A stretch of DNA of 64,000 bases, from positions 160,944 to 224,943 of the forward strand of contig VJWM01000250.1 of NCBI GenBank assembly GCA_010909165.1. The letters are read 5' to 3'. Position 1 is the first letter of the stretch; each line of letters opens with the position of its first letter. Shown here piece after piece: positions 17,601 to 63,489 of the stretch. The position numbers and the translations under genes are program-made. The notes below the pieces were generated by a model, which did not search any database, was not told the DNA's origin, and saw only the letters and a list, made by a program, of their open reading frames with translations. Source of the stretch: Anthoceros angustus. Lineage: Eukaryota; Plantae; Anthocerotophyta.

Positions 17601-20600
17601 GATCCGCGAGAGAGTGGGGCATGCGAGAAGAGGAACCGAGGGAGCCAAGAGGGTTTGAATCCGCACTGGAGCGTGAATGGGTACAGTGATGAGGTTAAGG
17701 ATGTTGATGCTCTGTGAAAGTACTCAAATTCTCAACAATGGATGAAGTGTTGAAGAGGTATAAACAACCGCTGCACAATTCATTGATGTCGCCTTCTAGG
17801 TGACTAACCGATATGAAGGGTATACCCAAGGAGTGGGGGAGCATAGGATTGACTGAACCCGGAGCAATCCCAAAAGGGATTCCGCAGATGTTAAATCCAA
17901 GTACTCATTGAAGGTAAAGGATCGCTTGAGTCAGATCTCAAGGCGGATGTAATCTATCCTATAGTCAATACCGAATGGGTGGCTCCATTGTGGTGGTCCC
18001 AAGAGACCAGAAAGATGGTTTGCCAAGATCGGTTGAATAAGGTCACCAAGAAGGATCATTTCCATTGCCCTTCATCGATAATATCCTAGATCCGTCGCAG
18101 TGGATGGCGTATTCATTCTTAGATGGGTATTCATTATAACCAAATTTTGATCTCCGGAAAGTGATCACCGCTTACAACGGACTGGGGACATATGCCTACG
18201 CGCATTTGGACCGAGCGCTCGGGTCTTTCATGCGAACCATTGTCAAGATCTTCAAGACTTCTAGGGACTTTATGGAAGTTTTCGACGACTTTCGGAGCCG
18301 AAGGACCATCCATGCACCTTCAAAGTGTCTCGAACGGCGTCGAGCCACGCAATTATGTTTGCATCCAAAAGTGCTATTTGGCATGTCGAAGGAACCGCTG
18401 GGACATCAATTTCGAGTATAGAGTTGATCCCTAAGGTCAAGGTCATAGCCACTCTAGCACCTTCAACGCTAAAGGAACTGTGGGTTCGGGATGGTATTAC
18501 AGACGCATTCCAAATTTTGCAAAGCCCCACTAACGAGCTTGTTGAGGAAGGAATGAAGCAACCGCTATGTAATTCATCGATGTTTTCGCCTCGAGACATA
18601 TGGGATTCCCAAAGAATGGGGCAGCATAGATTGACTCGAACCAGAGCAATCCCAAGAAGGATTCCACAAGACAAGTTAAACCCAAGTACTCCTCAAGGTA
18701 AAGGATCGCTTGAGATGTACCTCAAGGCGTGATCTATCCTATAGTCAATACCGAATGGGTGGCTCCAATAGTGGTAGTACCTAAGAGGCGCCAGCAAAAT
18801 CCGAGTTTGTCGATCGAGAAGGTTGAATAAAGTCACCAAGAAGGATCACTTTCCGCTACCCTTCATCGATAATATCCTCGATCCGTCGCAGTGTAATGGC
18901 GATTCATTCCTAGACGGTATAATCACCGCACCTTAGGGAGAGCGATTGGCCTCGACCGCTTTTACAACCGATCGGGGACATATGCTTACAAGCGCAGCGA
19001 CGGGTTGACGGAGCACCGGTCCTTCATGCGAGCCATCAAAATTTCAAGGACTTCCTCCGCGACTTTATGGAAGTTTTCCGACGACTCCAGATTCGGTCAA
19101 GGACCATCCGCACCTCCGGCCTCGAGCCGCCGAGCCACGCAATTATGCTCGCATCCGCAAAAGTGCTACTGCATGTCGAAGGAATTCGCTAGCATCAATT
19201 TCAAGCCGAGGTATAGAAGTAGATCCGGACAAGGTAAAGGTCATCGCCACCCTTAGAGCACCAATAACGCTAAAGGAACTCCGCGGTTCCCGGGAATGGT
19301 CGGTATTATAGACGCTTGCTCCAAATTTCGCCAAGCGGGCTGCCCCACTAACGAGCTTGTTAAGGAAGGATCGAGGGAATGGACGAACGAACGGAGAACG
19401 CATTCCGTGGATCACGAGACGACACTACAGCTACCACGCTTAAGAGGCCTGATCGAGTAAGAAATTCCATGTTTTCTGATGTTCAAGATTTGCCATCGGA
19501 ACAATCCTTAGCCGAGATGAGAAGAAGAAGGATTTTCCCCATCTACTATGCCGCACAACCAACGGAGCGAAAGTATACCACCACGGAGCGAATCGGGAAT
19601 GATTTATTCTCGTGAAAATTCGACACTACCTCTCATATGAGTTTGTGTTCCATGTTGATCACTTTTTGAAACACCTTGTGAATAAACTTGACCTTCTCGG
19701 GATGATAGCTCCGGATCCGCCCAGTGAGTTTACCTTCATGGTGGAGACGAGAGAAGGCAGAAACGTCACTTCATATCCCGCTTAAAACAGGAACGTGGAA
19801 CCAAAACCAGAAGATGATTTTCCGATGAGACATTGTTGAGGATGAGAGCGAAGACCCAATTCGAAGGAAAGGGGAGGGAGATGGCCTCGAATGAGAAGGG
19901 AGGAGAGGTTCACAAGACCAACATATCGAGATCTTATGATTATCCGGCACGGGCCAAATCCTCACCATCTTCCAAGGCACAAACAAAGCTCGCTCACTAT
20001 TCAAGACCACTTCGGCACAACACGAACTTATACGCATGGGTCCCGGATGGCGGGGAGCGTTATGCGCACAAAGTGTGAAAGTAATCGAGCTCATTACACG
20101 AAGAGGAGGCTGGAGGCCATTATGCCGCGCATGTCACTTGCAGAAAAATTCGAGGCCGGCTATTGGTGGCCTACCATGTACAAGGACGTCCAAGAGTTCA
20201 GAAAGCGACGCTGTCGGCTGGGAAGCCAACCGCCACAACACAATGGCCACTTGTCCCCATACTTGCCGTAGCGCCATTTGAGAAATGGGGATCGATTTTC
20301 GGGCCCATCCACCAAAACAAGACCCGCCAAAACCAAGACATTCCGTGGCCACAGACATCAGACGAATGGTGGAGGCGCAGCGCCGCCACGGGATTCGCAA
20401 CGTGGCTGTGTTCTTGTTGAGCAAATCATCACTAGATATGGCTGCCCATTGAGCTGGTCACGATAGAGAGGTACGTCAATCGTGTAATCTCTAATATGAC
20501 CAATCATTTCAACGCCATCATGTGAAGACTACTCCCTACAACCCAAAGGCCAATGGGTTGACAAAAGGCAAAGGCTGTTGTGCAAGATCCCGACCAAAAC

Positions 20601-27999: not shown

Positions 28000-30759
28000 A
28001 TGTGATATTCTAATGGCTTTGTTGCTAGTTTTCTTCTCTAATCAACTTAGGAAGTTAAGCTAGCAACCTCATACTCATTTTAGTTGATGAAAATGCATTT
28101 CAATATGCATTTCTGATAGCATATTATCATCTGCATCATAGGCAGCATCCGCTAGTCTTACAGTCATCTAGAAACTCATGTTGCCCATCATACCATTGCT
28201 GAGTGAAAATAATTAGCTTAAAACGTTCTAAGTAAAGTAATAAGTATAGCTACTTTATTGATTATTTTCATTTGTTCAATTTTCATCAAACCAAACCAAT
28301 TTTTCTAAAATGATTGGCTATGGGTTCTAGCCACCCTTCTAGTTCTTGTGATTCTATAAGGCCTAGTCATTGGGCCTCTTATAGGTTAATTTTGCTTAAG
28401 AATAGCATCATTGTTGCTTATATTCTTCTAAGCAATCTGCCTATTTTAGCTTTTGCTTTTAGCCTCTTAATCTTCAAGCACAAGCACTATAGGTCGCAAA
28501 CAACGACGCAACCATGCTGAGGCAAGGAGGAAGCACGATCAGGCAGCCCGTTCACGCTCGTCAAATCGCAATTGTGCTCGAGGTTTTGGATTATCATCGG
28601 CGCCAAGTGTCTTCATCATCTTGGATCTAATTCCTTAGCCGATGTGCTTGCGATTTTGCTGCAAGAGCGTGATTGGAGACCTTCACCCGCCCTCGACTCA
28701 TGGACAAGGCAAGATGCAGCTATGCAGCACATGCTTATCGGGCCTCGACGAAGTCACTTCCATCACACCAATGGTGCCTCACCTCAAAGCCAGGCTTTCC
28801 TGAGGCGATCATGATATTTACCAATCTACGAACGTAATGGAATATAGCTTATTTTGGAATAGATATGTGTTAAAACATAATGGTGATTTTAGTTACAGTT
28901 AAATTAGGTTTAGTTTTATTATTCGTTAATTAATAACCGTCAATACAACTGCTTTTGTATAAGACCCTTTCTTTGTGTGTAATTTGTATCATCTTCGATT
29001 CCAACTTGCTCTTGTCCCTCTTGCTTACCTCTTGCACGATCTTCACACATGCGATCCTAGGCTACCAACTTCTTTATGGTATCAGCCTTGATCGCTCATA
29101 CCCCATGTAGCTAATCCTCATGGGGTAGCTATGCTTTCTAAAAAAAAATGGAAGAGGGGAACACATCCCACTTGCCTTCAACGAGGCAAAATAGCAAGGA
29201 AGCATATGGAGCCCCACCGCACTTCTTGAAAATGTAGCAGATGCATCACGCATCCTTCCTCAAAAGTAATCGAAAGGATTGAACCCCATACCAATCCAGA
29301 GGCGCACGCACCGTCCGGCTCGCCGTCTGCCCCTCGAAGGAACCACGGGCTTGCAACCACGGACATTGTGGAGGTGCGCACCGGGCGTCTGCTTTGAGAC
29401 ATGCGCAGGCGTACCAAGATGACTGTGATCCTGCCTCGCGGATCCGCTACCAACCAACCGATGGAATTCGAATTCGCGCACGAGGTGATGATGGCCGATT
29501 TCGCGATGGGGGGCGAATTAGCGCGGCGCAGGATCAAAATTGTTGAGTAGCGGTGCAAATTGAGGCGCCAGACATTGAGGCGCAGCCACAACACCGCCAC
29601 GAGACGGGGGTGTATGCGTCGGCCGCTGACGGGTTAATATCGCCGTCACGCTGACAAGTACGGGTTGCAGGCAAAGCAATACCGCATTTCTAACTTACAA
29701 GACGCTCGATCGCTGCTCATTTTAAAAGGATTTTATTCCCGCCCAAGGCACCACACCAGAAGTCGAACCCGGGTGGCTCGGGTACTAGACATAGATACTA
29801 ACCACTATACCAAGGCAGCTTCTTATTTCGCTATTGTTTTTAGTTAATTTATCTACACTAGGTTAGATCCTTTACATCCTCATTGGTTGTAATATGCTTT
29901 GATACTAATCATTTTTTTTATGTATTTTGATCTCAATGATGATAGTGATGACAATGAATCATTCAATACATTGTTTGGCAATTTATTTGAAACTTTAGAG
30001 ATAGAAACTCCTGTAGAGTATTCTATATAGGATTTTTCTCCACAAGCTGTACAATCTAGATTAAACATGTCGGGATCTTCTTCTTTGCCTCCCGCTCTTC
30101 TCACTCCTCTTAGGATAGAATTCAAGGATAGAGATAGATTTAATGGGAGATTACACTATATGGGCAATGCGGTGTCACAAATTTTAGAAGAAAATGAATT
30201 GATGGGGTTGTAGACGGTCCGAACTCGCTCCCGCCCAGAGCCGCCTCGATCTCATTTTGAATGGCACCAAGGATCGCAAGAACTATTATTATTTCGCCTA
30301 GATCGAATATGATGACACATTCCTTGGGTGCCGCCACTTCAAGTGATGTGTGGTATAACTTTAAGATGATTTATAAGGATAGGAGCTCACCTCCCTAGTA
30401 CAAGCTCAATTTTTAGTCTTCATGAAAGACAATGAGGTGGAGTCTTATATAACAGTTTCGCACTTGTCGCTAACCTTGCATATTGTGGAACAAATTTAAG
30501 TGAAGTTCGTGTCGTCCCTACTTGCAACCTTACCAAGCATATCAATCTTTTGTAAGCGCCGCAGTGCCATGATAAGAACAGGTCAATCAACAGTGCAACC
30601 CCGCTATTACACTCAGAGGTGTTTGGAGCTCTTCTAGTAGAGGAGAGGACTCGTGGACTTAATAAAATGAAGGCCACCAAGTGGTCAATCAAACTCAAGA
30701 ATTTTGTTCACTTCGAGGCAAAGGGGCTGAGGACGGTGGACGTGGCTTCCCAACCAAAT

Positions 30760-31405
30760 TGTCGCCATGATTAATTAGGTTAGCTAATTAATTAACCTAG
30801 GTAATTAGGCTGATTACTAGATAACCAGTCCGCAGGCATGAAACGTGTGGGTTTGTTTAGGGCTCGGGAGCGAGGCGTGAAGGGCAAACATATGATGCTG
30901 GATGATGGCGAACGTGAGTGACTGGGCAGCTCGGGCATTATTGCGCAAGATGGTTGTGAGGTTGCAAGCGTGGGCAGCATGGCGCCGACGGTGGAGGAGA
31001 CCGCGGCAACGCCGGAGCAAGTGTGGCATGATAAGTAACCGATCCGGGCTTAGCTAAGTAGTTGTCGGTTCTGGCAGTCAACAAGGGCTTGACCTTCCCG
31101 TAGCCGGCTTAGGGACATGAGATATGCTGATTTCAGAACGGAGCAAGTCGTGGAGCGCCATGTCGTGTGTGGTCCGAGTGTGTCGGTTGATGTCCGAGGA
31201 CTTACCGCAACTCACAACTGCTTGTTAGGGCGGTCCGAGGATCACCTGGTGTTTCGAGTTGGTGATCCGCCGGGCCGCGCCTGGGTGTTGTGAAACCGAT
31301 TGCGCTACGGGTTCACCGCTGTATGTTTTGCCCCAAACACCGGTTTTGAGTGAACAAGACACATTAGCGCCTTGCGCGGCGACGATGTTTCTCTCGTATG
31401 GTTTT
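30760..31405 (+). repeat. Repeat A1
   Basis: Colinear with 36178-36842, from gattaattaggttagctaattaattaacctagg to ctctcgt(a/g)tggtttt. Confidence 0.9.
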
Positions 31406-31701
31406 ACTCGATAACTACTTTGAACCTTGCCGCCATCTTGGTGTGCAGAGAGTTGTGTGCACAAAGACCTACCCGTCCCGATTCATGGGCATCATGGTGT
31501 GGACTTAACGCAAGGCGCTTTGTGAGCTAAGGGGTGACGGGATACTCACCGGCCGAGTGTCCGTGGAGGGTGGTACACCTATCTCGAGCTTGCTGGTGTT
31601 CTAGCAAGGAGTCGGGGTCAAGTCGTGACACAAATTTTTGTGTAATACTCCTTCCTTTCCTAACCTCCGTTAATCACGACTTTGTTACTTTTGCATGGGC
31701 T

Positions 31702-34100
31702 ATGTCATCCGATGGGAGCGATGAGGAGCCAGCCTATCATTTGAGGAGCAGGACTGCATTTATACCTTTCCCACATGAGAGCACGACGCCAATCTGGACC
31801 GCGAGGCTTGGTTCATCCGAGTTAGGACTGCTGAGGAGCCGACTTCATCATCCTCTACCTCCGCCAGAGTACCACGGGCCGTAGTGCTGGGGTAGTGTCC
31901 AAGCGTGAGGAGTGAGTTGGTCACCTCTATCGACCATTGTTCAGGTCGTGAGTGGAGCTACCAGTCCTGAGGAGGAGGAGTCTGGGAAGTCTGATACCAT
32001 GGAAGGATCCGAGCTGCTCACAAGTCCGAGAAGTTTTCTCAGCAGGCTGTGACGCAGATTTTAGGGACTTCAAACTGCTTTATGGCTTTAACTAGTCGCC
32101 TTAAGCATGGAGCCGCCACACTACTCCAGACATGTTTGAACAATGCTCGGTATCTAGCGGATGAGGCCTCGATCTTTGAGATTCATGCACCGTAAATGTT
32201 GGCGAGTAGAGAAGCCTAACTCGCCACGCAGCTGCCTGCAAGTGGCATACACGCTTGATGGCCATCGCAGAATCGGGCAGTACCGGCACAATTGCGCTGC
32301 TGGGCTCCCACCACCCACAAGCAGAACATGACTCCACGTGAGATGGCTATCGCCACACCGTGCTCCATATGTTAGATGTGCCCAATCATGACAACCTCAG
32401 AGAAGACTTCTTTGCAATTTTGGATAAGGCCTTTCCAACCAAGACCCCGAGAAAATTGCTTTAGCCTTTGCGGCAAGAAGGGTGAAACAAGACATATGGC
32501 CTTTAGGCGATTACAGTTGAGGGATGGCACGGTATGTTGATCGACCTGTGAGGCGACATGTGTTCTTCGCTTGAAACCGACCCCATGTTTCATTATCACC
32601 ACTACGCTGGTTGACAAGTATGGGGACAACTACACACCGGATCAGTCTATCGGAAGAGGAGAAGAAGGAGTTGGTTTTCTCAACAGATGCTTCCCAAAGA
32701 TACCAAGGCTTTCCACCATTACCAAAGAAATGTTTTCGTGGAAGGGTAGTTCAAGAATAACGCAGATCGCCAACAAGGGCAAGGAGTCCAAGCCGCCAAG
32801 GTCAGCAGCCATCGCCACCACACTTTGTAATGTGTGGCGAACATCTTTGCCCGCATGCAGATTTTAGTGTCGACTCACATCGCACTCAAGAAACCAGTCA
32901 CGTGGAGGCGCTTTGTTTTTCAAAGTATCCGAGCGGCGACCTTGGAAAACAGGGACAGACTCTAGTGCTACCACTAAGCCTACCATCACTATTGAACTGG
33001 AGCAACTGCAGTGGAGTGCCTCTACAGAGCAGCCACAGGAGGAAATCACAAGAAGAGCCAAGTCAAGCGCTGGCTAAGCAAAAGGCTGCTCAAATGATCG
33101 CCCGGAGACACCAGACCGACTACCAGTCAAGACTTTGGCGGCAAGCTTGAATGCGCTAAGCCTGCCAATGCTGTGGAACTTGTAACTACTGGGACATCAG
33201 ATGATCTTGGTGAAGATTATGGACCAGTCATGGAGGCTTATGCAACACACAAGGAGCAGTCCAAGGCTGAACCATTGCATGGCAAAGGTCTAGGCGTGAT
33301 TGATTCAGGTGGCCATTACTACAAACCCGGGTCATACCTTAGAGACGCATCACCACACACAAGGGAGCTAGAGCAAATGCCTGTGTCTTTCCAAAGAACT
33401 TCCATCGAGTCCAAAGATACCAAAGGAGAGGGTCGATCATCTACCTAAAGGGGATCAAGAGGAGCAAAGGACCCACTGTGTTCCCAGCGATCACATGCTA
33501 GACACACACAAGTCCGAACAGCCGTCATGCTAACCATGATGTTAACGCTAAGGAGTTGTTGAAGAGGGTGTACACGGCACTTGCTCGCCTTTCATGTGAT
33601 GTAGGAATTGAAGAGGTTAACTTGGACACCATGTTGCAATCTCCACAGTCGAGGTATCTATCGATGATTGCAACAGCCATCATGGTCAGACAGGGCTGGA
33701 TTCACTTGTTTCCGGCAAGACTGTGCAAGCTGCACAATTGGCTTGGGAAAGCTAGGGTCTACCAATCGTACAGCCCACAAATCGGCGCAAGGCCACAGTA
33801 AGCAACGTGCTTGTGGACAATCGGGCTAGCCATGTGCTGGTAAATGAATTTGCGCCTAGAGCTGTGTTGTTGGACACAGGAGCACAACCAGTGATCATAG
33901 GGAAGGTTCTGGCTGCTAGGCTGCGGCTAGAAGGGAGTGCGTTGAAGCCTTCCCCATGGAACATTCGTGACACGGGGCGCTTGAGTCGTGAAAGGGGAAC
34001 ACAACCCAAATAAGATCACTTTGAAGCCCAACACAGCAGATGAGGTGAGCTTGGCGTTGTCTAGTCACGGTGCCACTAATTATGACATCCTGATGTGAAT
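31702..34100 (+). pseudogene. gag-like ORF and retroviral-type aspartic protease of the DNMT element
   Basis: ATG at 31702 (MSSDGSDEEPAYHLRSR). Degenerate Cys/His knuckle near 32830. Protease motif RAVLLDTGAQPVIIGK near 33860. Confidence 0.7.
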
Positions 34101-34518
34101 TTTCCTTCTCCAGAGTCTCAATTGACAATCGGATGTAAGTGCCTTTTTAGGCCGATTGGGGGAAGCGAATTGCCTACCTACCCTTGGATTTGCATGACAG
34201 TACCGAGGCTACACTGGTGGAAAGACAGTCAGATGGTGATCCACCTTGGGGATGGGCCAGCTCTATTACCACCAGCATTATCGCGCCAAGCATGGTTAGT
34301 CGAGTGTGGAGAGGAGATCCTCCTCACATGCTCATGAGGGAGATGTGTTGGGAACACAACCTCCTCGTGAAAGATCCGCCATTCGAGCCTCCCATAGCCA
34401 GAAGGAGCGCATGCAAGCTCAAGAACATGTTTGCGTTATGCAGAAAGCCTGCACGACCATGTGGGAGGGAGCACATGTTTCCCCATTCAACTGGATTACT
34501 TGGCTACCTTCATCACAA

Positions 34519-35787
34519 GGTATCACCTTGGTGGAGCCGTTTAGGGGCCTATGCACCGGTCTTGAGGCGTTGTTGAGGTGTGGCATCACGCCTTCGTACA
34601 TCTATCGTGATGTTTGTCCAAATAGGCATATTGCCGCACATCGGTGCACTGCTGCAGTAGCTTCCCCAAAGAATTTTCTGTGCAAGCCAAGAAGCATGTT
34701 TGACGCCTCCCACGTAATCATTTAGTACATCCAGCAAGCACACGCTCAAGCATGGTTGGTGGGTGGTGGAGAGGACATCCTCTCACATGCTCATGAGGGA
34801 GATGTGTTGGGAACCATCTCGAGGCTCGATATCCGGCCATTACGGGCCTCCCATAGCGGCGGGCTTGTCACGGCAAGCTCAAGAGGTTGCTCGTGTTATG
34901 CAAGTCTTTGCGGCTTCAGACCCGGTACCACGGGGAGGGAGCACATGTTTCCCCATTCAAGATGCAGTGATTACTTGGCTACCTTCATCACGAGGCATCA
35001 CCTTGGTGGGTTGTTTGGGGGCCTATGTCTTGGTCTTGAGGCATCTTGAGGTGTGGCATCACAGTCTTCAGGTACATCTACTGTGATGTTTGTCCAGCTG
35101 TTAGGCATATTGCCGCACATCGGTGCACCTGCTGCAGCAGCAGTTTCCCCAGCAATTTTCCAGGCAGGCCAGTAAGAGCATGTTTGACACTCTCCCACAG
35201 AACATTCAGTACATCCAGCAAGCACACGTTCAAGCCCTTGGGCATGTGGATTTGCTGATTGCAGGATGGGAGTGCCAAGGCCTATCTGTCAAAGCCGGAG
35301 CAGGTTGCAAGATAACCGCTCAGCTTATTTAGGATCCGGGTGCAAGCATTGGCTGCTGATCAACATCCTCAAGTGGCTTATCTGGCTGAGAACACACACC
35401 CAATTGGATGCTCTACCACAATCAAGGCCAAGACATGGCCGTGATCCAAGACATCATTAGACCTCCTTCACCATGGATGCAGCCTGTGGGCAGCTATGCT
35501 CATGACTCAGAATTATTGGACCAATTTGGTCCCCTTACCTATCCTCAGACTTGGCTTTACAAAGAATTAGAATGGAGCCCACCCGCTCCTCCCATGTGAT
35601 GTCCCTGGATGACAATCACACCCAGCCTCACAGCCAGGAGAGCCCTTGGTTTCCTACCAACACACCGCAGCCAAGGAGAACTCGCCCACGTTGGTCACTA
35701 TCCTGCCCTATGCTTATAGGAATAACGGTCCTGGTATGCTTTTTAATGAAGATACCAAGGTGTGGGAGGAACCTACAGTGCAGGAGA
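34519..35787 (+). pseudogene. DNMT3-like C5-cytosine DNA methyltransferase domain (frameshifted, N-part duplicated)
   Basis: Motif I GITLVE(P/L)F(R/G)GLCTGLEALLRCG; RYIYCDV; motif IV HVDLLIAGWECQGLS (35243-35287); motif VI AYLAEN (35376-35393); motif VIII-like MDAA..GSYAH.LR.YWTNL (~35473-35530). Confidence 0.85.
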
Positions 35788-35931
35788 ATTGATGATCCAG
35801 CGCTCATGTTGTTGTGTGATGGCTGTAATGGCGGCTACCACCTATTTTGTCTTCAGCCACCACTGACTGAGGTGCCAGAGAATTCGTGGTATTGTCCCCT
35901 TTGCCGAGCTAGGGACACCAGTAACAGCTGA
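35779..35931 (+). pseudogene. C-terminal PHD finger (first Cys lost at deletion junction)
   Basis: CRRIDDPALMLLCDGCNGGYHLFCLQPPLTEVPENSWYCPLC followed by a stop; fits the C4HC3 PHD pattern. Confidence 0.93.
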
Positions 35932-36015
35932 TCAGGTGAACCCTTGGATTTTCCTTTGGCATCTGATAGAGCTTGCCTGCAGTTTTGGTGACTTGTAGCA
36001 CCACACTGGGGGGGG

Positions 36016-36175
36016 GATAAGGACTTACCAGGATTCCGTTCATCCCTACTCATTTTCTCACAGTCACGTTCATAGCGACCCCCTCAAAGAGTGTGAGGTC
36101 AGGACTTTCGTTCGCATACAATTTTGGTTGCCTAATGTCAAGGGCACTTTTGGCTAACACTGTTTCAGCACGACA
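36016..36175 (+). repeat. Repeat B1 (160 bp), preceded by a G9 polypurine tract (36008-36016)
   Basis: gataaggacttaccagg...ttcagcacgaca, near-identical to 36843-37002. Confidence 0.95.
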
Positions 36176-36177
36176 GC

Positions 36178-36842
36178 TGTCAGGCCATGCTGATTAATTA
36201 GGTTAGCTAATTAATTAACCTAGGTAATTAGGCTGATTACTAGATAACCAAATCAATTAGGTGCATGAAACGGTGGGTTTGTTTAGGGCTCGAGCCAGGC
36301 GTGAAGGGCAAACATATGAGCCGGATGATGGCGAACGTGAGGACCGGGCAGCTGGCATTATTGCGCAAGATGGCCGGAGGTTGCAAGCGGGCGCATGGCG
36401 CCGACGGTGGAGTGAGACCGCTGGCAACGCCGGAGCAAGTGTGGCACGAATCATGGGCTTAGCAGAAGTAGTTGTCGAAGTTCTCCGTGGCGCCGCGGCG
36501 CCGCTTGGACCTTCCCGTAGGGTTAGGGACATGAGATATGCTTTGTGATTTCGTGAACCGTAGCAAGTCGTGGAGCGCTATGTCGTGTGTGTGGTCCGAG
36601 GTCGTGTTGATGCCGGGTCGAGGACCACCGCAACACATCGAATCTCGCTTGTTAGGGGCGGTGTCCGAGGATCCGCTGGTGTTTCGAAAGTTGGTCGATC
36701 GGTCGGCCGCGCTGCGGTGTTGTGAAACCGGATTGCGCCACGGTGGTTCACTGTTTGCGGTTTTGCCCCAAACACCGGTTTTGAGTGAACGAGACACATT
36801 AGCGCTCCTTGCAGCGCGACAGTGTTGCTCTCGTGTGGTTTT
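36178..36842 (+). repeat. Repeat A2
   Basis: Begins tgtcaggcc 2 nt (gc) after B1 and matches A1. Confidence 0.92.
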
Positions 36843-37002
36843 GATAAGGACTTACCAGGATTCCGTTCATCCCTGCTCATTTTCTCACAGTCACGTTCAT
36901 AGCGACCCCCTCAGAGAGTGTGAGGTTAGGACTTTCGTTCGCATACAATTTTGGTTGCCTAATGTCAAGGGCACTTTTGGCTAACACTGTTTCAGCACGA
37001 CA
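36843..37002 (+). repeat. Repeat B2 (element 3' end)
   Basis: Second copy of B, ending cacgaca. Followed by aaatt and resumption of the Copia gag. Confidence 0.95.
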
Positions 37003-38649
37003 AAATTTTCAGCGTTCCACATATAATCCACAGCAGCACCAAAGCAGAAATATGACCTGCTATTGGTGCAAGATACCCGGCCATATTGAGAAGGATTGCC
37101 GGAAGAAAAAGGCCGGTGAGCCTCGACGAGATACAAGTCTCCCTGAATCAAATGTCACAACAACAAAAGCTAAGTCACCCACAATCTTAGTTGTTTGTCT
37201 TTCATCTGTCCATTCTCAAGTAGAAACTTGGTTTTTAGATTCTGGAGCCACTAGTCATATTTGTTTTGACAGACACTCATTTAAAACTTTCTCACCCACA
37301 TATGATGCCAATCAGTTTGTGCTTTTGGGTGATGATGGGCTTTCCATCAAAGGCTTGGGCTGGTCACATGTCCCTAGACGAGTCTTCACTTATACTTTCT
37401 GGCATTTTATTTGTCCCTTCTATGACCAAAAATTTGATGTCAGTGATTAAGTTGTCACAACAACACTCTTGCCGAGTCTGCTTTGATCAATCTGGTTGCA
37501 CTGTAACGCATGTTCCATCAAGTCAGGACCTTTTCATAGGCACCCCTTTTCATGATTTGTATTTATTAGATGTCAAATCGATAGTGCAACCTCAACCCAC
37601 TCAGTTTGTTAATGCCATTCAAAGACAAGCTTCAATGCAACTTTGGCATTGTCGTCTTGCCCACGTCAATTTTCAACGTCTAGCATCTCTAACAAAGGGT
37701 GATAGTTTTCGAGATCCACTTACCTATCTCCTTCTACCCCTTCGCGGACGCCCGCACCTTAGTAAAGCCTTTTCTAAGCCATATACGGATCTCCACTCAA
37801 CAAGGGCCTCGCCTTTTGGATACTATTCATAGTGACATTTGTGGCCCTATGTCCACCAGCTCATTTGGAGGAGCTATTTATTTATTACATTCATAGATGA
37901 ATGGAGCCGCTATTGTATTGTTTATGTGTTAAGACATAAAAGCGAGGCTCTTATGTGTTTTCAAACCTATGTGCGTTTTGCAACCCGTAGAGATGTGTCA
38001 CAAGGTTAAAATTTTACGCAGTGACAATGGTGGCAGTACATCGCCATGCTTTTTAACTTTTGCTCTTCGGAAGGGATCCATCACCAGCTCACCGTGCCGT
38101 ATACTCCTGCTCAAAACTCTTTTGCTGAGAGGAAAAACCGGACACTCCAGGAGGCTACTTTGGCATCTCTCACTTTTGCTAGTCTCTCTCGTGGATATTG
38201 GGCTGAAGCGTTGATGGCTGCTAACTATGTTCTCAACCGACTACCTTCTAAGGAGCTTGGTTTGACTACTCCTTATGAGAGATGGACAGGACACAAGCCC
38301 CGCATTGGGCACTTGCGTATATTCGGATCACCAGCTTATGCTTATGTACCTGTAGCTACTCGTCATAAGATGGACTTGAAGGCTATTCGCAGGATTTTTG
38401 TGGGCTACTCCGACGATGTGAAGATTCAAGTTATTTGATCCTCTACACGTGTGACCATCTCACGCAGGTGGTTTTTAACGAAGATATTTTGCTTCACAAC
38501 ATGTCCGCCACACTCCCTCGAGCAACTATGCCTCTTGCATCTATATCCGTGTGACCCACCTCTCGAATTTGCATTTGATGATTCTTCTGTTACTATTTTT
38601 GAGGATGACTCCTCTTTGGCTTCAGAGGGGCTGATAACCCTTCGCTAAT

Positions 38650-41345: not shown

Positions 41346-43532
41346 TCAATGACCCCCAGTGTTACGTGAGATCATCCATGATCCTTGTTGCACATCTTCA
41401 AGTGAAACCCAGATAGGATCTGCATAACCATGAAGCCTTACAAGATACTCTGGTACATTACCACGAACAGCAAGCGCTTCTCTCTCTGCCAAGAATTCAA
41501 TAATTTCTCGCAGACCATGACTGTGTTGAACCAAGATGACATAATCCTTCCTGTTCATATCCTCATTGTGTTTCGAAATCACAAATGGTTTCAGCAAAGA
41601 GACATGAAATACATTATGAGAGAAGATCCATTAAGGCAAATGTAGTTTGTAAGCCACATCTCCAATGCGCTTCAGAACTACGAAAGGTCCTCCATACTTA
41701 GGCCTTAACTTTGAGGTCAACCCTTGTGGCCGTGGGAAATTCTTCAATTTCACCCACACCTTGTCTCCTACTTGAAACTCTACCTTGCCGGCTCACAAGA
41801 AACTTCTTTTGCATGTCCCGAGCCTTGGCCAATATCTTCTTAGCAACTTCATGCCCGGCCCTTAACAGCTCAATGCAATCACTTGGTTCTCTTGCTGTTG
41901 TCTCAAACACACCAGCATTCAACATCGAAACTACGTCCATCGCTTTGTTATCTGTCATCTGAAAAAGGTGTGTAGCCTGTGGAGCTATTTACAATGTTAT
42001 TATAACTAAACTCTGCATCCTCAAGATGATTACTCAAGTCTCGCTAGTCCATCTGTACACAGTGTCGTAAGTATTCTTCTTGGATTCTGTTCACCCTCTC
42101 TGTTGATCCATTTGTATCAGGGTGGTACGCTGTGCTTATACATAATTGCACTCCTAAGCTCTTCATTGCCAAAACTCAGAACTGGGATCTCACACAATAT
42201 GCATAGGCGTCCATGTAACACATATACATGCTTCTTGAACAATGAGCAACATGAACATCGACATGAGCTAACTCACCGCTTCTTTGTAGGGATGAAGTGT
42301 GCTTGCTTGTCAATCTATCAACCCATGATAGTGTGTGTCCATTCTTGGTGGCAATGGCATAATGAAATCCATTGATATACTTTTCCAAGGCCCACTTGGA
42401 ATAGGCAGGGTTGCAACAAACCTCGATTTGTCCGCTCCACCTTATCGATACCTACACAAGACTTAACATACTCAACAAGATGCTTGTACATTCCAGCCAA
42501 TAAAATGCTTTCTCAACTTCTCATAAGTTGGGTCAATTCCTCTATGACTGCACTTGGCACATCATGACACTGCAAGCAACTTCCTTCTCAACACATGAGA
42601 ATCGTGAATCACAATCTTTGCTTGAACATCAACAAGCCATTTCTAAGCTTAAACTTAGATCCGGTTGCTCCACTTCATTGATCCAATCAATGGATCTCGC
42701 AGATAAGCTTCCTTGATCATGTGAGTGTCCTTGGCTCAATCACCATCTGTTGCAGCTAGCTTAGGCCTCTTGAAAAGCGCTTATCAAACTTAAACTCGCT
42801 ATGACTCAAAGCATCTGCCACAAGATTCTCCTTCCCTGGCTTGTACTTAATAGACACATCATACATTGCTAGGAAATCTTGCCATCTAGCCTATCTTGCG
42901 CTTAGTTGCAGCTGATTAGTAAAGAAGCTTGTGCTTACATTGTCTATGTACAACACAAAAGATCTTCCTGAAAGCTAACTTCTCCAAATCTTGAGACAAT
43001 TGATGACAGCAGTCATCTCCTTTTCATAAGTGGAGTACTTCCTTTCATGTTCATGCAGCTTCTTTGACTCGTAAGCCACTAGTATACCTTTTTGCATGAG
43101 CATTGCACCAATTGCAATATCTGACGCAGCAGTATATACTTCTATATCCTTCTTCGGATCATAGATTGCCAATTGGGTAGTCTTGAGTTTCAACGAAACT
43201 CGAATGCCCTCGACATTCATCATCCCACTTCCAAGCCTTCGCCTTCTTTAAGAGATCAGTTAATGGGGCAGCAATCTTGGCAAACATCGGTACAAATCTT
43301 CTGTACACGCTAGCCAATCCCAAAAACATACACACCTCGTGCACATTCTTTGGTGGCAGCCAACTCTGTATGGCCTTTACTTTATCAAGATCCATCCTGA
43401 TACCATTCGCAGAGACAATGAATCCAAGGAAGTCTGAATCCAAGGAAGTCTATCTCTTCCTTGACAAAGTCACACTTTGTTATAGCTAAGAACAAAGAAT
43501 TTGCTGTTAACCTTTCTAACACTTTCCTCAAG
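41346..43532 (-). pseudogene. Chromovirus pol 3' part (RT end, RNase H, integrase, chromodomain)
   Basis: [24 protein letters not shown]; [12 protein letters not shown]; IAIGAMLMQ; chromodomain-like segment at the C-terminus. Confidence 0.88.
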
Positions 43533-46500
43533 AGTTTGAGGTGCTTTGCGGAAGCGTTTGATCAAAGATAGTGCTTTACTAATTGATACAATTGATTACA
43601 AGAGGTGGGCTTTTATAGCCTATGTCTGAAGAGTTGTACCTCTTCGGTATAAGATACCAAAGGGTATGACCACGCTGGGTTAAGCTAGCTAAGGTAACCA
43701 TAACCAACGCGGTCTGTACTTCTAACTCTCCCTCTCAGACTAGTTGGGTTATCTAAATCAAAGAACTAATAATCATTTGCCGCTGGAGTATTGTATAGGT
43801 ACTACGGTCTTCAACTAAACTCAACTCACCGATCGTCATAGGTCATAAGTAAGATTGAAGCAAGCGGTCTACAATAGTTGTCAACTTCAAGTAATCGTTA
43901 CGAGATAAGATCGCCTCACCAAATGTGTGGTGGTCCGACTTCAAAAAGCACTGATCAACCAATCCAAGCCCTTCTCTGTGGGCAGTGTTTGAACTTGCAA
44001 GGATTTTGTCGATTATGTCTGCTTTGTATTGTCGTTGTGGGTACATCTTGTACCTTAACAATTCCCTCTCGGCGTCACGAATATAATGGTGTTGAATCTC
44101 AATATGCGTGCGCATGAAAGACGGATTAGCGACAAGAGCAATGGTGACATATTGTCACAATTAAGCTTGGGCCCTTCACTTCATATCCAAATCTTCACAT
44201 AGCTTTCTTTCCCATTCGGCCTCTTTAGTGGCTTGAGTGCTTTGTACTCGATTACATTGATGAAAGTGATATTGCAGCTTGTTTTCTACAAGACCAATTA
44301 ACAACAATGGAGCGCAAGCAATATCTTTGAGATACTTTTTCGGTGTCGTCAAGCCCAATCTGCATCGACAAAGCATGTCGATGGCGGATGCTTCTTTCCG
44401 CTAGGCTTGAAGCAGGCGAGGCCATAATTTGGAGTACCCTTGAGGTACCGCATGATGCGCTTGAGAGCAACCCGGTGATCCTTTTCAGATTCTCGAGGCG
44501 AGCAATAGCATTTCACGGTGTTGAGATATCAGTGCAGTCGATTACTCAAGAACATGAGAGTACCAACTCCCATACGATAAGGAATATTTTCCATCTCTTT
44601 CTTTTCCTGCTCGATTGTGGCGGTAGCGGATGAAACTCTCCTCAGGCGCGGTGTCGCCCGTGCATTCTCCAAATTGAGCGTTTTAACATACCATACATAT
44701 CTTCCTTGATGGAGATAGATAGCACCGATGGTATCTCTATGTACATGCATACCAAGAATATATTTAACTTTGCCGAGATCCTTCATCTCGAATTCTTTAC
44801 TAAGGTCACTTTAATCTTGTTAACTAGTTCAATATTGTTGCAGAATAACTAAGTCATCAACATATAGTGCAACCAGCTGAGGGAGGTGCGAGTACATAGA
44901 TATTGGTGTCGCTTCACTTTGGATAAACCCTATCTTCTTGAGGTAAGAGTCCATTCTCTCATACCATAAGCGTGGGCTTTGCTTTAGTCAGTAAATAGAG
45001 CGAATAAGTTTACACACCTTGTTTGGGTATTGCTCATCCTCATAGTCTTGGTTGATCCATATAGATCTCTTCTTGCGAGATGACCATAAAGGAAAGCGGT
45101 ACAAACATCAAGGCGATAAATTTCAGTTAAGCTCGGCACATAAAGCCGGGAGCATTCTCACAGGCGACCTTGACTACGGTGAATAATATACCACGATAGT
45201 CCACTCCTCTTTCGACTATAACCCTTAGCCACTAGTCTCGCCTTATAGCGAATACGAGGTTCAACCTCCGGAATTTAGTTTTGAGAACCCACTTGCATTT
45301 GTGATGGTTACGCCTTTGGCAAGTTTACTAGAGTCCGTATTGTTTTGATAAGAGAATTATATTCATCATCAATAGCAAACTTCCACTTAGCGCATCGTCG
45401 CGAATATGCCTCTTGAAGAGTGAGAGGATCTCCCTACGAAGGGCAACAAAAGCGTTGAAATGACTGCGGCGGTGGTGGTGTGACTTGATTGAACTCTAAA
45501 TCAAAGGGGATCTCATTCCAGAGGTGTCTCGGTTGACGATGACGCGAAGGATACCTTCGCTCAGGGGCTGGATCAAGTGTTACGGGAGAAGGTGGAGCAG
45601 GAACTGTCTCTGGGTCTTGTGAATTAAGAGCACCAAAGTCGTCTCTGTTTTCATAAGGATCAACAATGGCCTGTTCATCTTCCCCCTCTCGAGCAGGAAT
45701 AATAGGTATAGGTGCTGCTTGAGGTGAAGAGGCCAGGGATGGAGCAGTTGCGGGACCAGTCGGGAAAAGCAGTGAGTCAAAACTCGGGCATAAGGTCACC
45801 AGGTCGGAAGAAGCGATGTCGTCGAAGGGCGGCGAATCCATGGACTCGAGCATGCTAGCAGAGCCTCATCAAAAGTGTGACGAGCATATACAATAGCATG
45901 GGTATCCAAGTCAACGGTTTATAAGCCTTACGGTCCTCGCCATAGCCAACAAATACCGACGCGAGCGCTTGTCAGCGAGAGGAATATTAGCATAGGGGCG
46001 TGAAAATCCGAAGATGAGTAATAAGAGGCTTATATCCATGCCAGGACTCAAAGGGTGTCGGCGAGGACTTGGACTTAAGAATCGCCTGATGTTAACCGCT
46101 TGAAGGGTTTGGGGGCCAGCGGGCTAGCATGGCGCGGGCCATGGCGAGCAGATCGCCGTTGGCCTTTTCAGCAACCCCATTCTGCTGAGAAGTATAGGGA
46201 ACCGTAAACTGACGGATAATCCCCCTCTCAAGACAGAAGTCCTTAAATTGCCGGTTATTTAATTCTCCTGCATTGTCAGATCTAATGCACCGAAGCTTGC
46301 AACCGGTTTGCAGCTCAGCCATAGTGACAAAAGGAGTAAAGGAGCCGAAGGAATCACTCTTCAACTTGAGCGGAATAGCAAAGGTATAGCGACTATAGTC
46401 ATCAACAATAGTCATAAAGTGCGCCGCCAAGTGAAGGGGGGAGTGGACCACAAAGATCAACATGGACCAACTCCAAGGGTGAGAGGCGTGTAAAGTAGGA

Positions 46501-49500
46501 TAGGGAAGCTACGTTGTTTAGCATATATACAAGGTTCACATAGCAGATGCATGAAAAGTGTGGTAGCTTATCCCTAAATAAATCACTAGACATCTCTAAA
46601 AGCTTATCATGATTAATATGTCCAAGCCGAGAATGCCATAATAGGAGTCACCTTTGCGAGAACTCCCTCAGCCATGATGGCCATGGCGGGAGGCGTGGTC
46701 GAGAAGGCTGTGATCAGCAGTGCAGGAGAAGACATAGAGGTCATGCAGACGACCTCTAGCAACCACGCCGACCGGGAGCAAGATCTTGTGAGGAGGCAAT
46801 CGCCTCTGCCGAACTCTAACAGAAAGTACCGTCCTTCACCAAGTTGCGGACGGAGATAAGATTCTTCGCCATTTGCGGAACATGTAGCACATCACTTAAA
46901 AGAAGGAGAACCATCTTCAAGAGTAAAAATATGATTACGGTGCATAATAGTAAGGCGAGTCATCGCCGAGAAGAACAAAAGCGTTGATCTTGGGGAGATA
47001 ATCGAAAACATATGGTGATGGCGGCAAATATATGCGGCGGTGAGTCCAATAGCCAAGAGGTCTTGTATTCGAAAGCTACCAAGCTGAGCAATGTCGGCTG
47101 TTTACGCTTGGAGGTCGAGGCCATATTGGCGGACTTGGAAGGCGTCGAGGCTCACCGGCTTTCTTCTTGCGGTCGGGCTCGTGGCACAGAATCGCGATTG
47201 CAGTACCGGGCTTGGAACCACCGAGCTTGGAGAAGGAAGGACCGCGAGAAGGAGCCGAGAAGGCGATGAAGGGCCGTCTCGGTGGAGGAGGAGGCGTAGG
47301 TGGACGTTGGCCTTTGCTAACGAACATAACTCGTTCACCACCATGCTTGAAGTCGCGTTGAATGGAAGCCTCCTCTTGAAGGAGAGCGCCGCAATTTCGG
47401 AGATGGAAATGTTGGGTGTCGACTCTACACTTTGATGAGCCTCTCGAGGTGCCATTACGAGAGGACACAAATGCTTGAAAGTGGCGGGAAGGGAGGCCGA
47501 GTTGGACACAAGCTTCAAATTCGATAAGGAGTGCCTAAAGCGTGGGCCCCGAAGATATCGAAACTTCCCAACATAAGTACCAATGCTCTCATTATTATGC
47601 ATGCGTAAGAATAAAATTAGATTCGTATTATAATGTCATAACATTGGTAGATTGAAAATATCTACTAGCGCCAATGCTCTGCGTGATAGTAGCCCCATCA
47701 AGATGATGTAGGGTAACTTCGTCAAGGCCTGAAATAAGAATGTGAAGTGCAAGCTGTCTTGTTTGATCCAAGAGTCGAGAGCAGAGGGACCAGAGGCGTT
47801 GAATGGTGCCATCCACTATGCCAAGCAAGTCAGTGAGTATGGAGCATACTTGGCATATCTCAAACTTTGTCGTCAAACGGTCTTTTCTTTGAATTCAGAA
47901 GACATTCATATAATTAATAATTGGTATGGGCGTCACATTTGAAGAGGACGCCGATGCCATGGTTCGATGATCAAGTAATATATAATATAAAGAAGGAACA
48001 GTCTAGTTATATAGAGGAGCTTCTAATATAGTAATATGAGAAAGCTTGATGAGCGTAAATAGTATGAAAACAAAGATTAAAATCAAATAGCCCGATGAAC
48101 TATGCCACGATCACCGGGGCATGAATGATATAGGTCTTTGATGAGGTGGCAATCTGAAAATGTTCAACTTGTCCCAAAGGTGATGACACTCCAATTGGAA
48201 GAGCTCACAGTGGCACTGTGATTCATACAAGTGTCGAGGTGGATTCGATCTTGGTGAGGCGAGGAGAAACAGGTTCGTGCTTGATGGCTGAAAAATGCGG
48301 GGCAAGAGGTAACGACGGTGGCGATTTTAAAGTGTGCCCCGAGATCGGAAGAGGTGTCCAGTACCGCCGGGCAGGAGATCCAAAGGGCAGGGGCGTAAAC
48401 AGGCGGGGCCGTTTCGTACATCCCCATAAGAAACTTATGTGGAGTTTCTTTGGAAAGAAACTTAGTTTAAGTTGGCGGGCATCATCAGCAGGGTGAAGCA
48501 GCGGCAGGCGATCGGTCTGGCGCCCGATCGATCGATTGAGGTTGAGGCGCCTGCGGGCGCCACGCGACCTGCTGGAGATATGAGCGGCGCCATCCGGGCT
48601 GTGCGACCGAAACATCCAGTCGAATCCTTCAAATCTCGGTGATGGAAAAATTGGAAGGTGCTGTTGGATTAGCGCGGTGGAGGGCGCCTCATTTTGACGA
48701 GATTGCATGAGATTGGAGTAGTCACGCGATTTCGTGAGATATCCAATCGATCGCATTGCTGATTTTCCGATGCATTTAGCCGAATTCTCCAAACACGGAA
48801 AAGACGTTGTTAGAGAGGCCTGATCTTATACCGCCTTGAGATCTCATTTGCGGATACATGATCATCCTTCCGAAGTCGAGAGAAAATCCGGCGGCAATCT
48901 CGCATGAACTTGAGCATAGGAAGTTGTCGATGGGAGGCTGAATGTGAGTTGCTTTTGATGCAATAGGTGAACTCCCCATGGCAGGTTGTTGCTGATGATG
49001 CTGGCTTGAATGTTGAGAAATATTATCATGTTGTATGTGCTGAAAATTTTGCTGAAAGTCTTGCGAAGTTGAAGCAATTCGTCCATCAGCATAATAGAGT
49101 TTCTTAGCTGTTTTGGATGAATGATTTGAATCATGTCGTTTAGAATGTTGTGATGAAGAATTTTGTAGAGAATGGCTTTGAACTGGTGTAGTTGGAGTAT
49201 AATAAGGTGAATGTGTTCCCGTGTTGTGAGAATGATAGGAAACAGAATTATTATACTCGGAGCTCGAAATATCTCCACAACATCGCAGCAAATCAGTGTC
49301 GCCACTAGAGGACCAAGGTCTAGATGACCTTTGATGGCTTGATGTACTTTCTGTCGAAGATGTCAGCAAATCATTTTGAAGAAAGAAGTTGGATAGCATG
49401 AAGGCTATCTTGCTCCCTAAGTTGTTGAAAAATGTAGAATTCAGCCTATTATAGTTATGAGAACATCGAGGATGCACTCTACGTCTACTTCTCCTCTCTA

Positions 49501-50063
49501 TTTCTCCATTTCTCCTTGCATGATAGCTCTTGTGATTGATTCTTCTTGCCATGTTGTAACTTTATGTAAAACAATAAAGAAACAATGTTTTGTGCAAGGA
49601 AGAATGAGTAGAGTGCAAGAAGGAATAAGATGAAGAATGAGAGAGTGGCAATGAGCCATGAAACTTTAATGAATATAAAGGTTAATCATAGAAGAAGCCA
49701 AACTATTTTATTAGAAAACATGTTTGGTTGAATATAAGAAACTATAATAAGTATAAAAAGCTTCATATTACAAATACCAAAGGCATAAGAAAGGCGTTGC
49801 ATATTAGAAGAACATCTAGATTCACATCATAATGCATGATGAACTTAGTAATCAAACTTTGCTCTAATACCAAGTTTGAGGTGCTTTGCGGAAGCGTTTG
49901 ATCAAAGATAGTGCTTTACTAATTGATACAATTGATTACAAGAGGTGGGCTTTTATAGCCTGTGTCTGAAGAGTTGTACCTCTTCGGTACTAGATACCAA
50001 AGGGTATGACCACGCTGGGTTTAGCTATGCTAACCTTAACCAACGCGGTCTGTACTTCTAACT
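43533..50063 (-). mobile_element. Structurally complete, degenerate Ty1/Copia element with AG..CT termini
   Basis: LTRs 43533-43727 and 49873-50063. TSD TCAAG at 43528-32 and 50064-68. PBS tggtattagagc (rc of 49861-72) and PPT tgagagggag (rc of 43728-37). Motifs: IRSDNAGE, PYTSQQNGVAE, MKDLGKVKYILGM, HIEIQHHYIR. Excision restores host RT EEHVQHL|RKVLERL. Confidence 0.95.
48776..49552 (-). CDS. 258-aa S/H/Q-rich open frame in the Copia leader, upstream of gag; function unknown
   Basis: Uninterrupted ATG-initiated ORF in sense orientation between PBS and gag. No recognised domain. Confidence 0.3.
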   Translation of the reverse strand: MARRINHKSYHARRNGEIERRSRRRVHPRCSHNYNRLNSTFFNNLGSKIAFMLSNFFLQNDLLTSSTESTSSHQRSSRPWSSSGDTDLLRCCGDISSSEYNNSVSYHSHNTGTHSPYYTPTTPVQSHSLQNSSSQHSKRHDSNHSSKTAKKLYYADGRIASTSQDFQQNFQHIQHDNISQHSSQHHQQQPAMGSSPIASKATHIQPPIDNFLCSSSCEIAAGFSLDFGRMIMYPQMRSQGGIRSGLSNNVFSVFGEFG

Positions 50064-50227
50064 TCAAGTGTTGGACATGCTCTTCCAAGGTAGAACTGTA
50101 TATCATGATGTCATCCAAGTAGATCACAACACACTCATCCATCAGATCTTTGAATATAATATTCATGAGAGTCTGAAACGTGGCTGGTGCATTGGTGAGT
50201 CCAAATGGCATGACAAGGAACTCAAAA

Positions 50228-51008
50228 GAATAGGGAATTGGAATGGAGCAGTGAGCTTCACAGTTGTAGATATGGATGATCATGAAATCATCTTGGGCTT
50301 AGAATGGATGAAGGCCAACAAGGTATGTGTGAACGTGGACTCACGCACCATACAGATCTTAGGAGATGAAGAGCACAAAGTGAGTTGTGCAGTTCTCAAG
50401 CAGAGGCTTGGAGACAGCATCGAAGAAATCATCTCTAAGGAGAGCTCAAATGTTGTGTAAAGGATGGAGAGGAACTCTTTTTACTTGTGCTGCATGGACT
50501 AGAAGATGGCCTTGAAATGGAGTCTCAGATGTAGCCAAAGATTCCAAGGGAAGTGCAGGCTGTCTTGAATGAATTCAAGGACTTAATACCTAATGAGTTG
50601 CCTCCTTTACCTCCTTGAAGAATTGTAGATCATGAGATTGATCTAAAGCCAGGAAGTACACCGCCTTCAAGATCGCCATATAGATTATCGCACGATGAGC
50701 TACAAGAGCTGAATAGACAAATGTCTAACCTACTAGCCAAGGGCTATGTGAGAATCTCAAAGTCCTCATTTGGTGCGCCAATGTTGTTCACGTGCAAGAA
50801 GAATGGAGGATTGAGATTATGCTTGGATTATAGAGCACTCAATCAAATTACAGTAAAGAATTAATATCCTTTGCCAAGGATGGATGATTTATTTGACAGA
50901 TTGATAGGTGCTAAGTATTTCACCAAGTTGGATTTAATGGTTGACTATTACTAGATTCGCATCGCAGAAGGACATGAATATAAGACTGCTTGTAGAACGA
51001 GGTAGGCA
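50228..51008 (+). other. Internal inversion of the chromovirus protease-end/RT N-half
   Basis: The plus strand reads [37 protein letters not shown], while flanking protease and RT are on the minus strand. Breakpoints are approximate. Confidence 0.9.
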
Positions 51009-63439: not shown

Positions 63440-63489
63440 GTATGCATTGTTGCTGTTGGGGAAGCATGTGTCGCCTTCTTGACTTAGCT

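Follow-up and report, generated by a model that had tools for sequence, protein, structure and literature searches.

A deleted Gypsy retrotransposon with a DNMT3-type methyltransferase domain, and the moss, liverwort and algal relatives of its family

Retrotransposons equipped with a cytosine methyltransferase carry the very enzyme that is normally used to silence them. In print, they are reported from dinoflagellates and one charophyte (PMC5890265), as well as from other algae in a preprint, which also mentions 'streptophytes (Gypsy-DNMT3)' and, in Cymbomonas, other elements whose domain is DNMT4-like (10.64898/2026.05.21.726589). KnitGypsy-Dnmt3, described from one charophyte alga only, namely Klebsormidium nitens (de Mendoza et al., 2018, PMC5890265), is a Gypsy element with an intronless and unrearranged Dnmt3-type domain in the Pol frame, as in the family considered here, and its repeats are likewise arranged as A-coding-B-A-B (legend of Fig. 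4c, PMC5890265); unlike it, the copy reported here is deleted. In its available parts, the text of that paper, as distinct from the figures, mentions neither a PHD finger nor an EC loop and says nothing on priming or on target duplications, and its table of methyltransferase genes gives 9 for Physcomitrella, 10 for Selaginella and 33 for Klebsormidium, Sphagnum and Marchantia not being listed (PMC5890265). SymbioDIRS-Dnmt3 from Symbiodinium also combines a Dnmt3-type domain in Pol with the A-coding-B-A-B layout found here, and it methylates CG in yeast, but it differs by its tyrosine recombinase in place of a DDE integrase, its unrelated reverse transcriptase (RT) and its dinoflagellate host (PMC5890265). 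In the literature covered, in which subscription papers and Repbase reports are thinly represented, nothing was found on elements of this sort from land plants, nor on the end mechanism proposed below.

The locus lies in a 64-kb window, i.e. the whole stretch of DNA analysed, which is mostly made of retroelements plus an intron-containing gene at 56336-63440. It is a genuine member of the Gypsy-Dnmt3 kind that has undergone a deletion and stands on a branch of its own. The element spans 30760-37002 on the forward strand (6.2 kb), in the order gag - protease - C5-methyltransferase - PHD, and is nested in a Copia gag that it interrupts, the insertion being bounded by a four-base target site duplication, AAAT, at 30756..30759 on the left and 37003..37006 on the right. 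The 5' portion of this gag (30067..30755) was read from the sequence, with no Pfam match on that half, and the 3' part of the Copia element (37007..38500; zinc knuckle, protease, integrase) was recognised by Pfam through zf-CCHC (weak), Pol_BBD, gag_pre-integrs, rve and SH3_retrovirus. Another Copia, at 47100, has a 41-base stretch in common with the interrupted one. Within the element, a gag-like region (31999..33090) is homologous to the N-terminus of protein P0076 from the liverwort Calypogeia fissa, 114 of 360 residues being identical across 13 frameshifts and 2 stops in a frameshift-aware alignment, and matched no Pfam family. The aspartic protease (DTG at 33873), together with a conserved stretch behind it (33657..34195), is also homologous to P0076 (73/180 identical), its Pfam match to Asp_protease_2 being weak (E 0.005) and under the curated cut-off. 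The PHD finger (35779..35904), without its first Cys, matches PF00628 with an E-value of 3.4e-12 and is identical to Sphagnum P0054 at 22 of 32 positions. No second copy of the element was found within the 64-kb window, in which the tblastx rows corresponded to summed-score noise.

The linker and DNMT3-type methyltransferase occupy 34747..35786 as aligned to P0076, the aligned part starting at 34751. A preliminary description of this DNA had placed C5-methyltransferase motifs in the correct order behind a retroviral protease, which holds true: behind the protease DTG come motif I at 35008, motif IV at 35249 (WEC), motif VI at 35379, motif VIII at about 35489-35525 and the first half of motif IX. 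Among the strings it quoted, motif IV (DLLIAGWECQGLS at 35249), YLAEN at 35379 and YWTN at 35514 are literal in the sequence, whereas those for motifs I and VIII are composites across frameshifts, copy 1 reading LVEPFRGLCTGLEALL. The frameshift-aware translation it had recommended aligns to P0076 with a score of 450, against a maximum of 56 over 200 shuffles, at 145 identical residues out of 343 (42%) with 15 frameshifts and 0 stops; when 106 tiles of the window were scanned with P0076, the runners-up scored 120, for a tandem duplicate described below, and then 55. P0076, P0057 and P0048 were the best-scoring alignment guides among the 16 tried. The window is colinear with P0076 from residue 1 through gag, protease and methyltransferase, and the alignment of motifs I, IV, VI, VIII and IX needs neither introns nor motif rearrangement. 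The window contains a single instance of the chain IV-VI-YWTN, the patterns of which were composed only after the sequence was known, and 0 of 2120 dinucleotide shuffles of the 64 kb contain one. As the reading frame shifts every 20-30 codons, PF00145 had no match on the six raw frames or on stop-free pieces of the window methyltransferase; individual pieces of the window gave no match in word-index searches of proteins either, and a PDB sequence search with such pieces returned nothing besides DNMT3A at E 1.1. In a search of 1.84 billion proteins, a profile of 80 positions drawn from the motif I piece of the window nevertheless found 29 proteins, 12 of which carry PF00145, so that the lack of this domain, given at the outset as a reason to abandon the methyltransferase reading, concerns the raw frames only. 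One of the 29, P0002, was a false match (DUF285) and was dropped.

A second search, with the closest relative as query, retained 9 proteins among 7985 scored candidates, including some with a named source, namely Calypogeia fissa (liverwort), Sphagnum magellanicum (moss) and Cymbomonas tetramitiformis (alga); Tetrabaena socialis (P0028) was added as a further named relative by a separate search. No named Klebsormidium sequence was returned by the protein searches, and no relative was found among viral contigs. By scanning metagenomes with P0048, 517 stretches were confirmed, and the best 80 of them (L001-L080) are referred to as moss-type since their median identity to the Sphagnum protein is 78%. 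All 80 of these best 80 of 517 loci show the order gag-PR-DNMT-RT-RH-IN-PHD (PR, protease; DNMT, methyltransferase; RH, RNase H; IN, integrase) as far as each reaches, in line with the order proposed in the preliminary description; 26 of the 80 are complete, and 2 more are complete with split matches. A sister lineage has the order RT-RH-DNMT-IN-PHD and includes P0006, P0021, P0023, P0029, P0051, P0052, P0028 and P0053, those with a species name coming from chlorophyte algae. In several sister-lineage proteins, an extra conserved domain without a Pfam name follows the PHD finger, and may be a second methyltransferase.

Short fragments and near-copies were excluded from the tree, whose 32 rows are the window, 24 proteins, 3 loci and 4 phage enzymes. 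In this tree, which has neither Klebsormidium nor host DNMT3 sequences and in which the read-through of the window was guided by P0076, the window falls outside the RT-RH-DNMT-IN clade (100/99), on a long branch, and is placed next to the PR-DNMT-RT type, a position that is only modestly supported (92/71). Judging from the named Sphagnum magellanicum and Calypogeia fissa proteins, and not from the window, the lineage occurs in land plants, as had been surmised. A single element might instead have captured a host DNMT3 gene once, a scenario with which the single copy in the window would agree; hardly any credence can be given to it, given that the same domain sits at the same place in 80/80 loci (best 80 of the 517 confirmed) and in the named liverwort and moss proteins, and that DUF3444, present behind the host DNMT3 of non-flowering streptophytes (PMC6453930), was not found here by Pfam.

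Regarding the state of this copy, the methyltransferase breaks off inside motif IX at 35786, and a change of frame leads into the PHD finger; on both strands of the element, the scores obtained for motif X, RT, RH and IN were no better than shuffle level. The PHD finger with which the methyltransferase had been said to be paired is thus present, but RT, RH and IN are missing from the announced series. At the deletion joint (35774..35783), the same 10 bases serve twice, encoding motif IX when read in one frame and the start of the PHD finger when read in another, which suggests a microhomology deletion. The missing stretch would amount to about 3.3 kb, the corresponding distance having a median of 3263 bases in 37 moss-type loci. 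Two separate deletions, one of RT-RH and one of IN, had also been considered, and were dropped because the closest relatives have PR adjoining DNMT. Upstream lies a tandem duplicate of the linker and methyltransferase N-terminus with motif I, which ends before motif IV (34287..34746); it is 77% identical to 34747-35235, meaning that the first 460 bases of the interval initially noted duplicate the next 490, and the duplication joint carries a 5-base CAAGC microhomology.

The smaller breaks are of another nature. In the window methyltransferase, all breaks are frameshifts (15, with 0 stops), whereas stops predominate in the 78 moss-type relatives (388, with 23 frameshifts); 10 of the 12 classified frameshifts of the window are base losses. 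Indels dominate every long repeat pair of the window, with 52 gaps to 34 substitutions between the terminal repeats A1 and A2 of the element and 90 gaps to 37 substitutions between neighbouring Gypsy repeats. On this sequence pattern, the window frameshifts look like long-read errors, and they are therefore of no use for dating this copy. The same figures would be expected if the locus were a nearly intact young element, the deletion and the duplication being assembly errors just as the frameshifts; we regard this as quite improbable, since the clean 10-base two-frame overlap at one joint and the 5-base microhomology at the other are what recombination or template switching would leave, and read errors do not produce a loss of 3.3 kb. 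In C5-methyltransferases, motif X belongs to the cofactor-binding fold, and with motif X absent the enzyme of this copy is predicted to be dead. Without motif X, RT, RH and IN, this deleted copy likely can neither methylate DNA nor move autonomously, and the earlier suggestion that it could methylate its own cDNA finds no support in this copy.

At the level of the family, the kind of enzyme is clearer. When a profile of 23 family proteins was compared with the PDB, DNMT3A/B/C sequences made up the best 29 of 58 matches (E 2.5e-15 to 1.6e-9), followed by weaker matches to HaeIII (3.3e-6), DRM2 (0.011) and DNMT2 (0.055), HhaI also coming behind DNMT3; motif X is present in the relatives by the same comparison. 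A structure model of the relative P0048, confident over residues 80-410 and speaking for the family, retrieved by Foldseek top matches that are all DNMT3A/B/C (E 1.5e-14, TM 0.79 of target). As far as this model goes, DNMT3 is the nearest structure for the family, which bears out the DNMT3-like resemblance noticed beforehand.

In the window methyltransferase, the catalytic Cys is kept and the usual Pro before it replaced by Glu, as already pointed out. This EC is found in 65 of 78 moss-type loci (from the best 80 of 517), 69 of 78 having EN in motif VI, and in 23 of the 32 motif-pattern proteins among P0001-P0054, the other 9 having PC; these counts indicate an inherited family trait and not decay. 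As a departure from the usual PC, the EC dipeptide counts against reading the family enzyme as active. Besides, the motif I glycines are kept alongside the catalytic Cys and the motif VI Glu-Asn. The methyltransferase has a median dN/dS of 0.39 over 2988 pairs from 78 loci (0.28 for the most distant pairs) and RT one of 0.35 over 1700 pairs from 59 loci (0.22 for the most distant pairs), the pairs not being independent and the copies being decayed; a break-free methyltransferase region exists in just 1 of 78 moss-type loci. For KnitGypsy-Dnmt3, purifying selection on the domain was reported, with a published dN/dS <0.2 against 0.39 in this family (PMC5890265). Intact members would likely methylate their own cDNA. 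A non-catalytic role of the domain, as a DNA-/RNA-binding or flipping module, or an action on RNA, would suit the predominance of EC over PC among the pattern-matching proteins as well as the Klebsormidium domain, for which no methylation was seen in yeast, a result that its authors considered inconclusive (PMC5890265). The retention of the catalytic Cys, of the motif VI Glu-Asn and of the motif I glycines, the PC of 9/32 relatives and the complete DNMT3 fold in the P0048 model make such a role unlikely.

CpG observed/expected ratios range from 0.31 to 0.62 in the coding part of the element, against 1.04-1.10 in its repeats. This depletion was not read as a trace of self-methylation, because the neighbouring host gene is at 0.40. 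This gene (56336-63440), with short GT-AG introns of about 80-240 bases, resembles the plant spastizin (ZFYVE26) homologue; there was a weak Atlas lead to a ZFYVE26 cluster (0.88, rank 27) and no usable PDB or Pfam match, and 10 of its open frames, looked up for exact matches, gave 0. Together with its CpG ratio, its CHG ratio of 1.33 makes up the pattern that gene-body CG methylation would leave, and two open frames overlap near 57060, possibly through an assembly frameshift. Elsewhere in the window, another Gypsy family is present at 500-27800 in at least 3 copies, nested or in tandem and mostly with indel differences, its repeats lying near 594, 9781 and 21262 and its RT/integrase pieces at 7000-9100 and 17900-20400. 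Further pieces of Gypsy RT/RNase H, Copia integrase and gag-protease occur at 42000-43450 and 45400-47640, both on the reverse strand, and at 50060-51870. At 52326-54440, a 2.1-kb stretch flanked by perfect 32-base inverted repeats, possibly a non-autonomous DNA transposon, contains a GC-rich 38-base tandem array (52960-53550).

The repeats of the element follow the layout A1 - coding - B1 - A2 - B2, from TGTCG to CGACA. Repeat A1 (30760..31405), which begins with TGTCG at the left end, is 82% identical to A2 (36178..36842), mostly with indel differences; B1 (36016..36175), which ends with CACGACA, and B2 (36843..37002), which closes the element with CGACA, are 98% identical without gaps, 3 of 160 bases differing. 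A G9 polypurine tract (36008..36016) stands directly before B1 and overlaps its start, and the same G-run-ATA occurs in moss-type loci. The B1/A2 junction (36172..36181) is a palindrome, GACA-GC-TGTC, predicted to be the integrase attachment site; in moss-type loci, junctions of this type have a 2-base spacer in 21 of 22 cases. The window and the moss-type loci have in common the G-run before B, the ATA start and the CACGACA-nn-TGTCA junction, the rest of B having diverged. In two moss-type copies (L019:12700-12745 and L031:13150-13205), the B end includes the terminal CACGACA unit in short tandem arrays, the repeat number of which differs between B1 and B2.

Directly after A1, there is no tRNA-type primer site (TGG). 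Instead, in the minimum-energy fold, 12 nt within A1 (31056..31067), the putative RNA 5' end and self-primer, pair with 31409..31420, the predicted primer-binding site of self-priming type; when A1 was shuffled 300 times, 4 of the shuffles attained such a duplex. In 35 moss-type loci, a self-primer matches 12/12 in 17, 11/12 in 11 and 10 in 5, these counts being the best of 16 offsets with G-U pairs allowed and no shuffle control; it sits 31-36 bases behind a TATA-like box, which 2 of the 35 loci lack. When set against 300 shuffles, the duplex beat all of them in only 5 of 10 moss-type loci. An exact 4-bp target duplication flanks 6 of 10 full-length moss-type loci, and a 5-bp one 0 of 10. Upstream of gag, A is found in 30 of 33 moss-type loci and B in none of the 33; downstream of the PHD finger, 18 of 31 have B-A-B, 11 have B alone and 2 have B-A. 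The single-B copies (A-coding-B) are L005, which has a matching 4-base duplication, L057, L068, L073, L076 and six more; they would be either one-LTR circle products or B1/B2 recombinants.

In LTR elements, the primer site and the purine tract bound the LTR copied by reverse transcription. With a primer site after A1 and a purine tract before B1, the reverse-transcribed LTR would be B-nn-A, the CA/TG palindrome lying inside it. The best explanation of the whole, to which we give a probability of roughly 60%, is that the locus is a deleted, likely non-autonomous Gypsy copy from a family of the type gag-PR-DNMT3-RT-RH-IN-PHD, whose intact members would likely self-methylate their cDNA and whose ends would arise when integrase opens a two-LTR circle within one of its LTRs. 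The RNA would begin within A1 and prime itself on the 12 bases after A1 in a Tf1-like manner, self-priming being known in Tf1/Tcn1 elements (PMC6317226). The plus strand would then start at the G-run before B1, giving B-nn-A as LTR and [B-nn-A]-coding-[B-nn-A] as linear DNA. Its ends would join, the A end to the B start, to form the A2/B2 joint; a single staggered cut at the GACA-nn-TGTC of the first LTR, placed behind CA on either strand, would then yield two CA ends with 2-base overhangs, which are the processed ends usual for integrase and would be inserted as A-coding-B-A-B with a 4-base duplication; a precedent may be seen in the foamy virus integrase, which cuts the palindromic LTR-LTR circle junction (PMC1180852). 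The methyltransferase, packaged with RT, would mark the new DNA, much as a particle-carried methyltransferase was proposed to do by the authors of 2018 (PMC5890265), and the PHD finger on the integrase would read target histone tails.

The circle model also predicts a second product, A-B-A-coding-B, from the other palindrome; this form was found in 0 of 33 moss-type loci, which counts against the model and is left unexplained by it. Alternatively, no circle would be needed if the internal B1/A2 junction templated both ends of the linear DNA and the integrase acted on ordinary ends. Such templated end rebuilding has reportedly been proposed for split-repeat DIRS/PAT elements. It would account for B never standing before gag (0/33 loci), and the layout is that of DIRS elements (PMC5890265). 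This second route is possible but on balance doubtful, as the primer site directly after A1 and the purine tract directly before B1 are canonical for an LTR B-nn-A, the A2/B2 joint has no added base, and A-coding-B copies exist (11/31, one with a matching 4-bp duplication), even if recombination between B1 and B2 also yields the latter. Extending the circle model, it might tentatively be proposed, with odds well short of even, that these elements form an old green-plant Gypsy lineage, spread over chlorophytes, liverworts and mosses in two domain orders, which is self-priming, has its attachment site inside the LTR, integrates only via circular or joined DNA and is methylated by an EC-loop DNMT3.

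The window copy itself is damaged and mainly adds a third, distant branch. Through its moss and liverwort relatives, the family is placed in hosts amenable to culture and transformation, in which the host DNMT3 makes CHH methylation, so that what the element gains from its enzyme becomes testable. With the EC loop, natural variation is seen in a catalytic motif regarded as almost invariant. In addition, the DIRS-like repeats, left unexplained in the 2018 paper as far as its available parts go (PMC5890265), could be accounted for by the end signals in a way that lends itself to testing. Such ends would be missed by finders requiring two matching LTRs, perhaps the reason why plant catalogues lack the family.

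Compared with known systems, the Gypsy-Dnmt3 kind is already known, and it is the land-plant range, the EC loop, the two domain orders and the end signals that are absent from the papers found. DIRS/PAT elements have a tyrosine recombinase and no target duplication, whereas the relatives carry an rve integrase, with TG...CA ends and a 4-bp duplication. As here, Tf1/Sushi and Tcn1 have no tRNA primer site, their RNA 5' end being predicted to pair behind the 5' repeat; they differ by ordinary LTR pairs and chromodomains, and the available part of the source never mentions PHD or methyltransferase (PMC6317226). The host DNMT3 of non-flowering streptophytes is multi-exon with a C-terminal DUF3444 (PMC6453930), whereas the element needs no introns and has a PHD finger instead. 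The sister lineage, with Tetrabaena socialis P0028 and Cymbomonas tetramitiformis P0053, has a homologous methyltransferase, often with WEC, and a PHD finger after the integrase, but its methyltransferase comes after RNase H and not after the protease, and it forms the separate clade (100/99). Finally, the relatives from a liverwort (Calypogeia fissa P0049/P0076) and a moss (Sphagnum magellanicum P0054), together with L001-L080, all of them unpublished, share with the window the domain order, the WEC loop, the G-run-ATA start of B, the CACGACA end, GACA-nn-TGTC, the self-primer and the 4-bp duplication; they differ by a methyltransferase identity of about 42-45% and by an A repeat of about 300 bases, against about 650 in the window.
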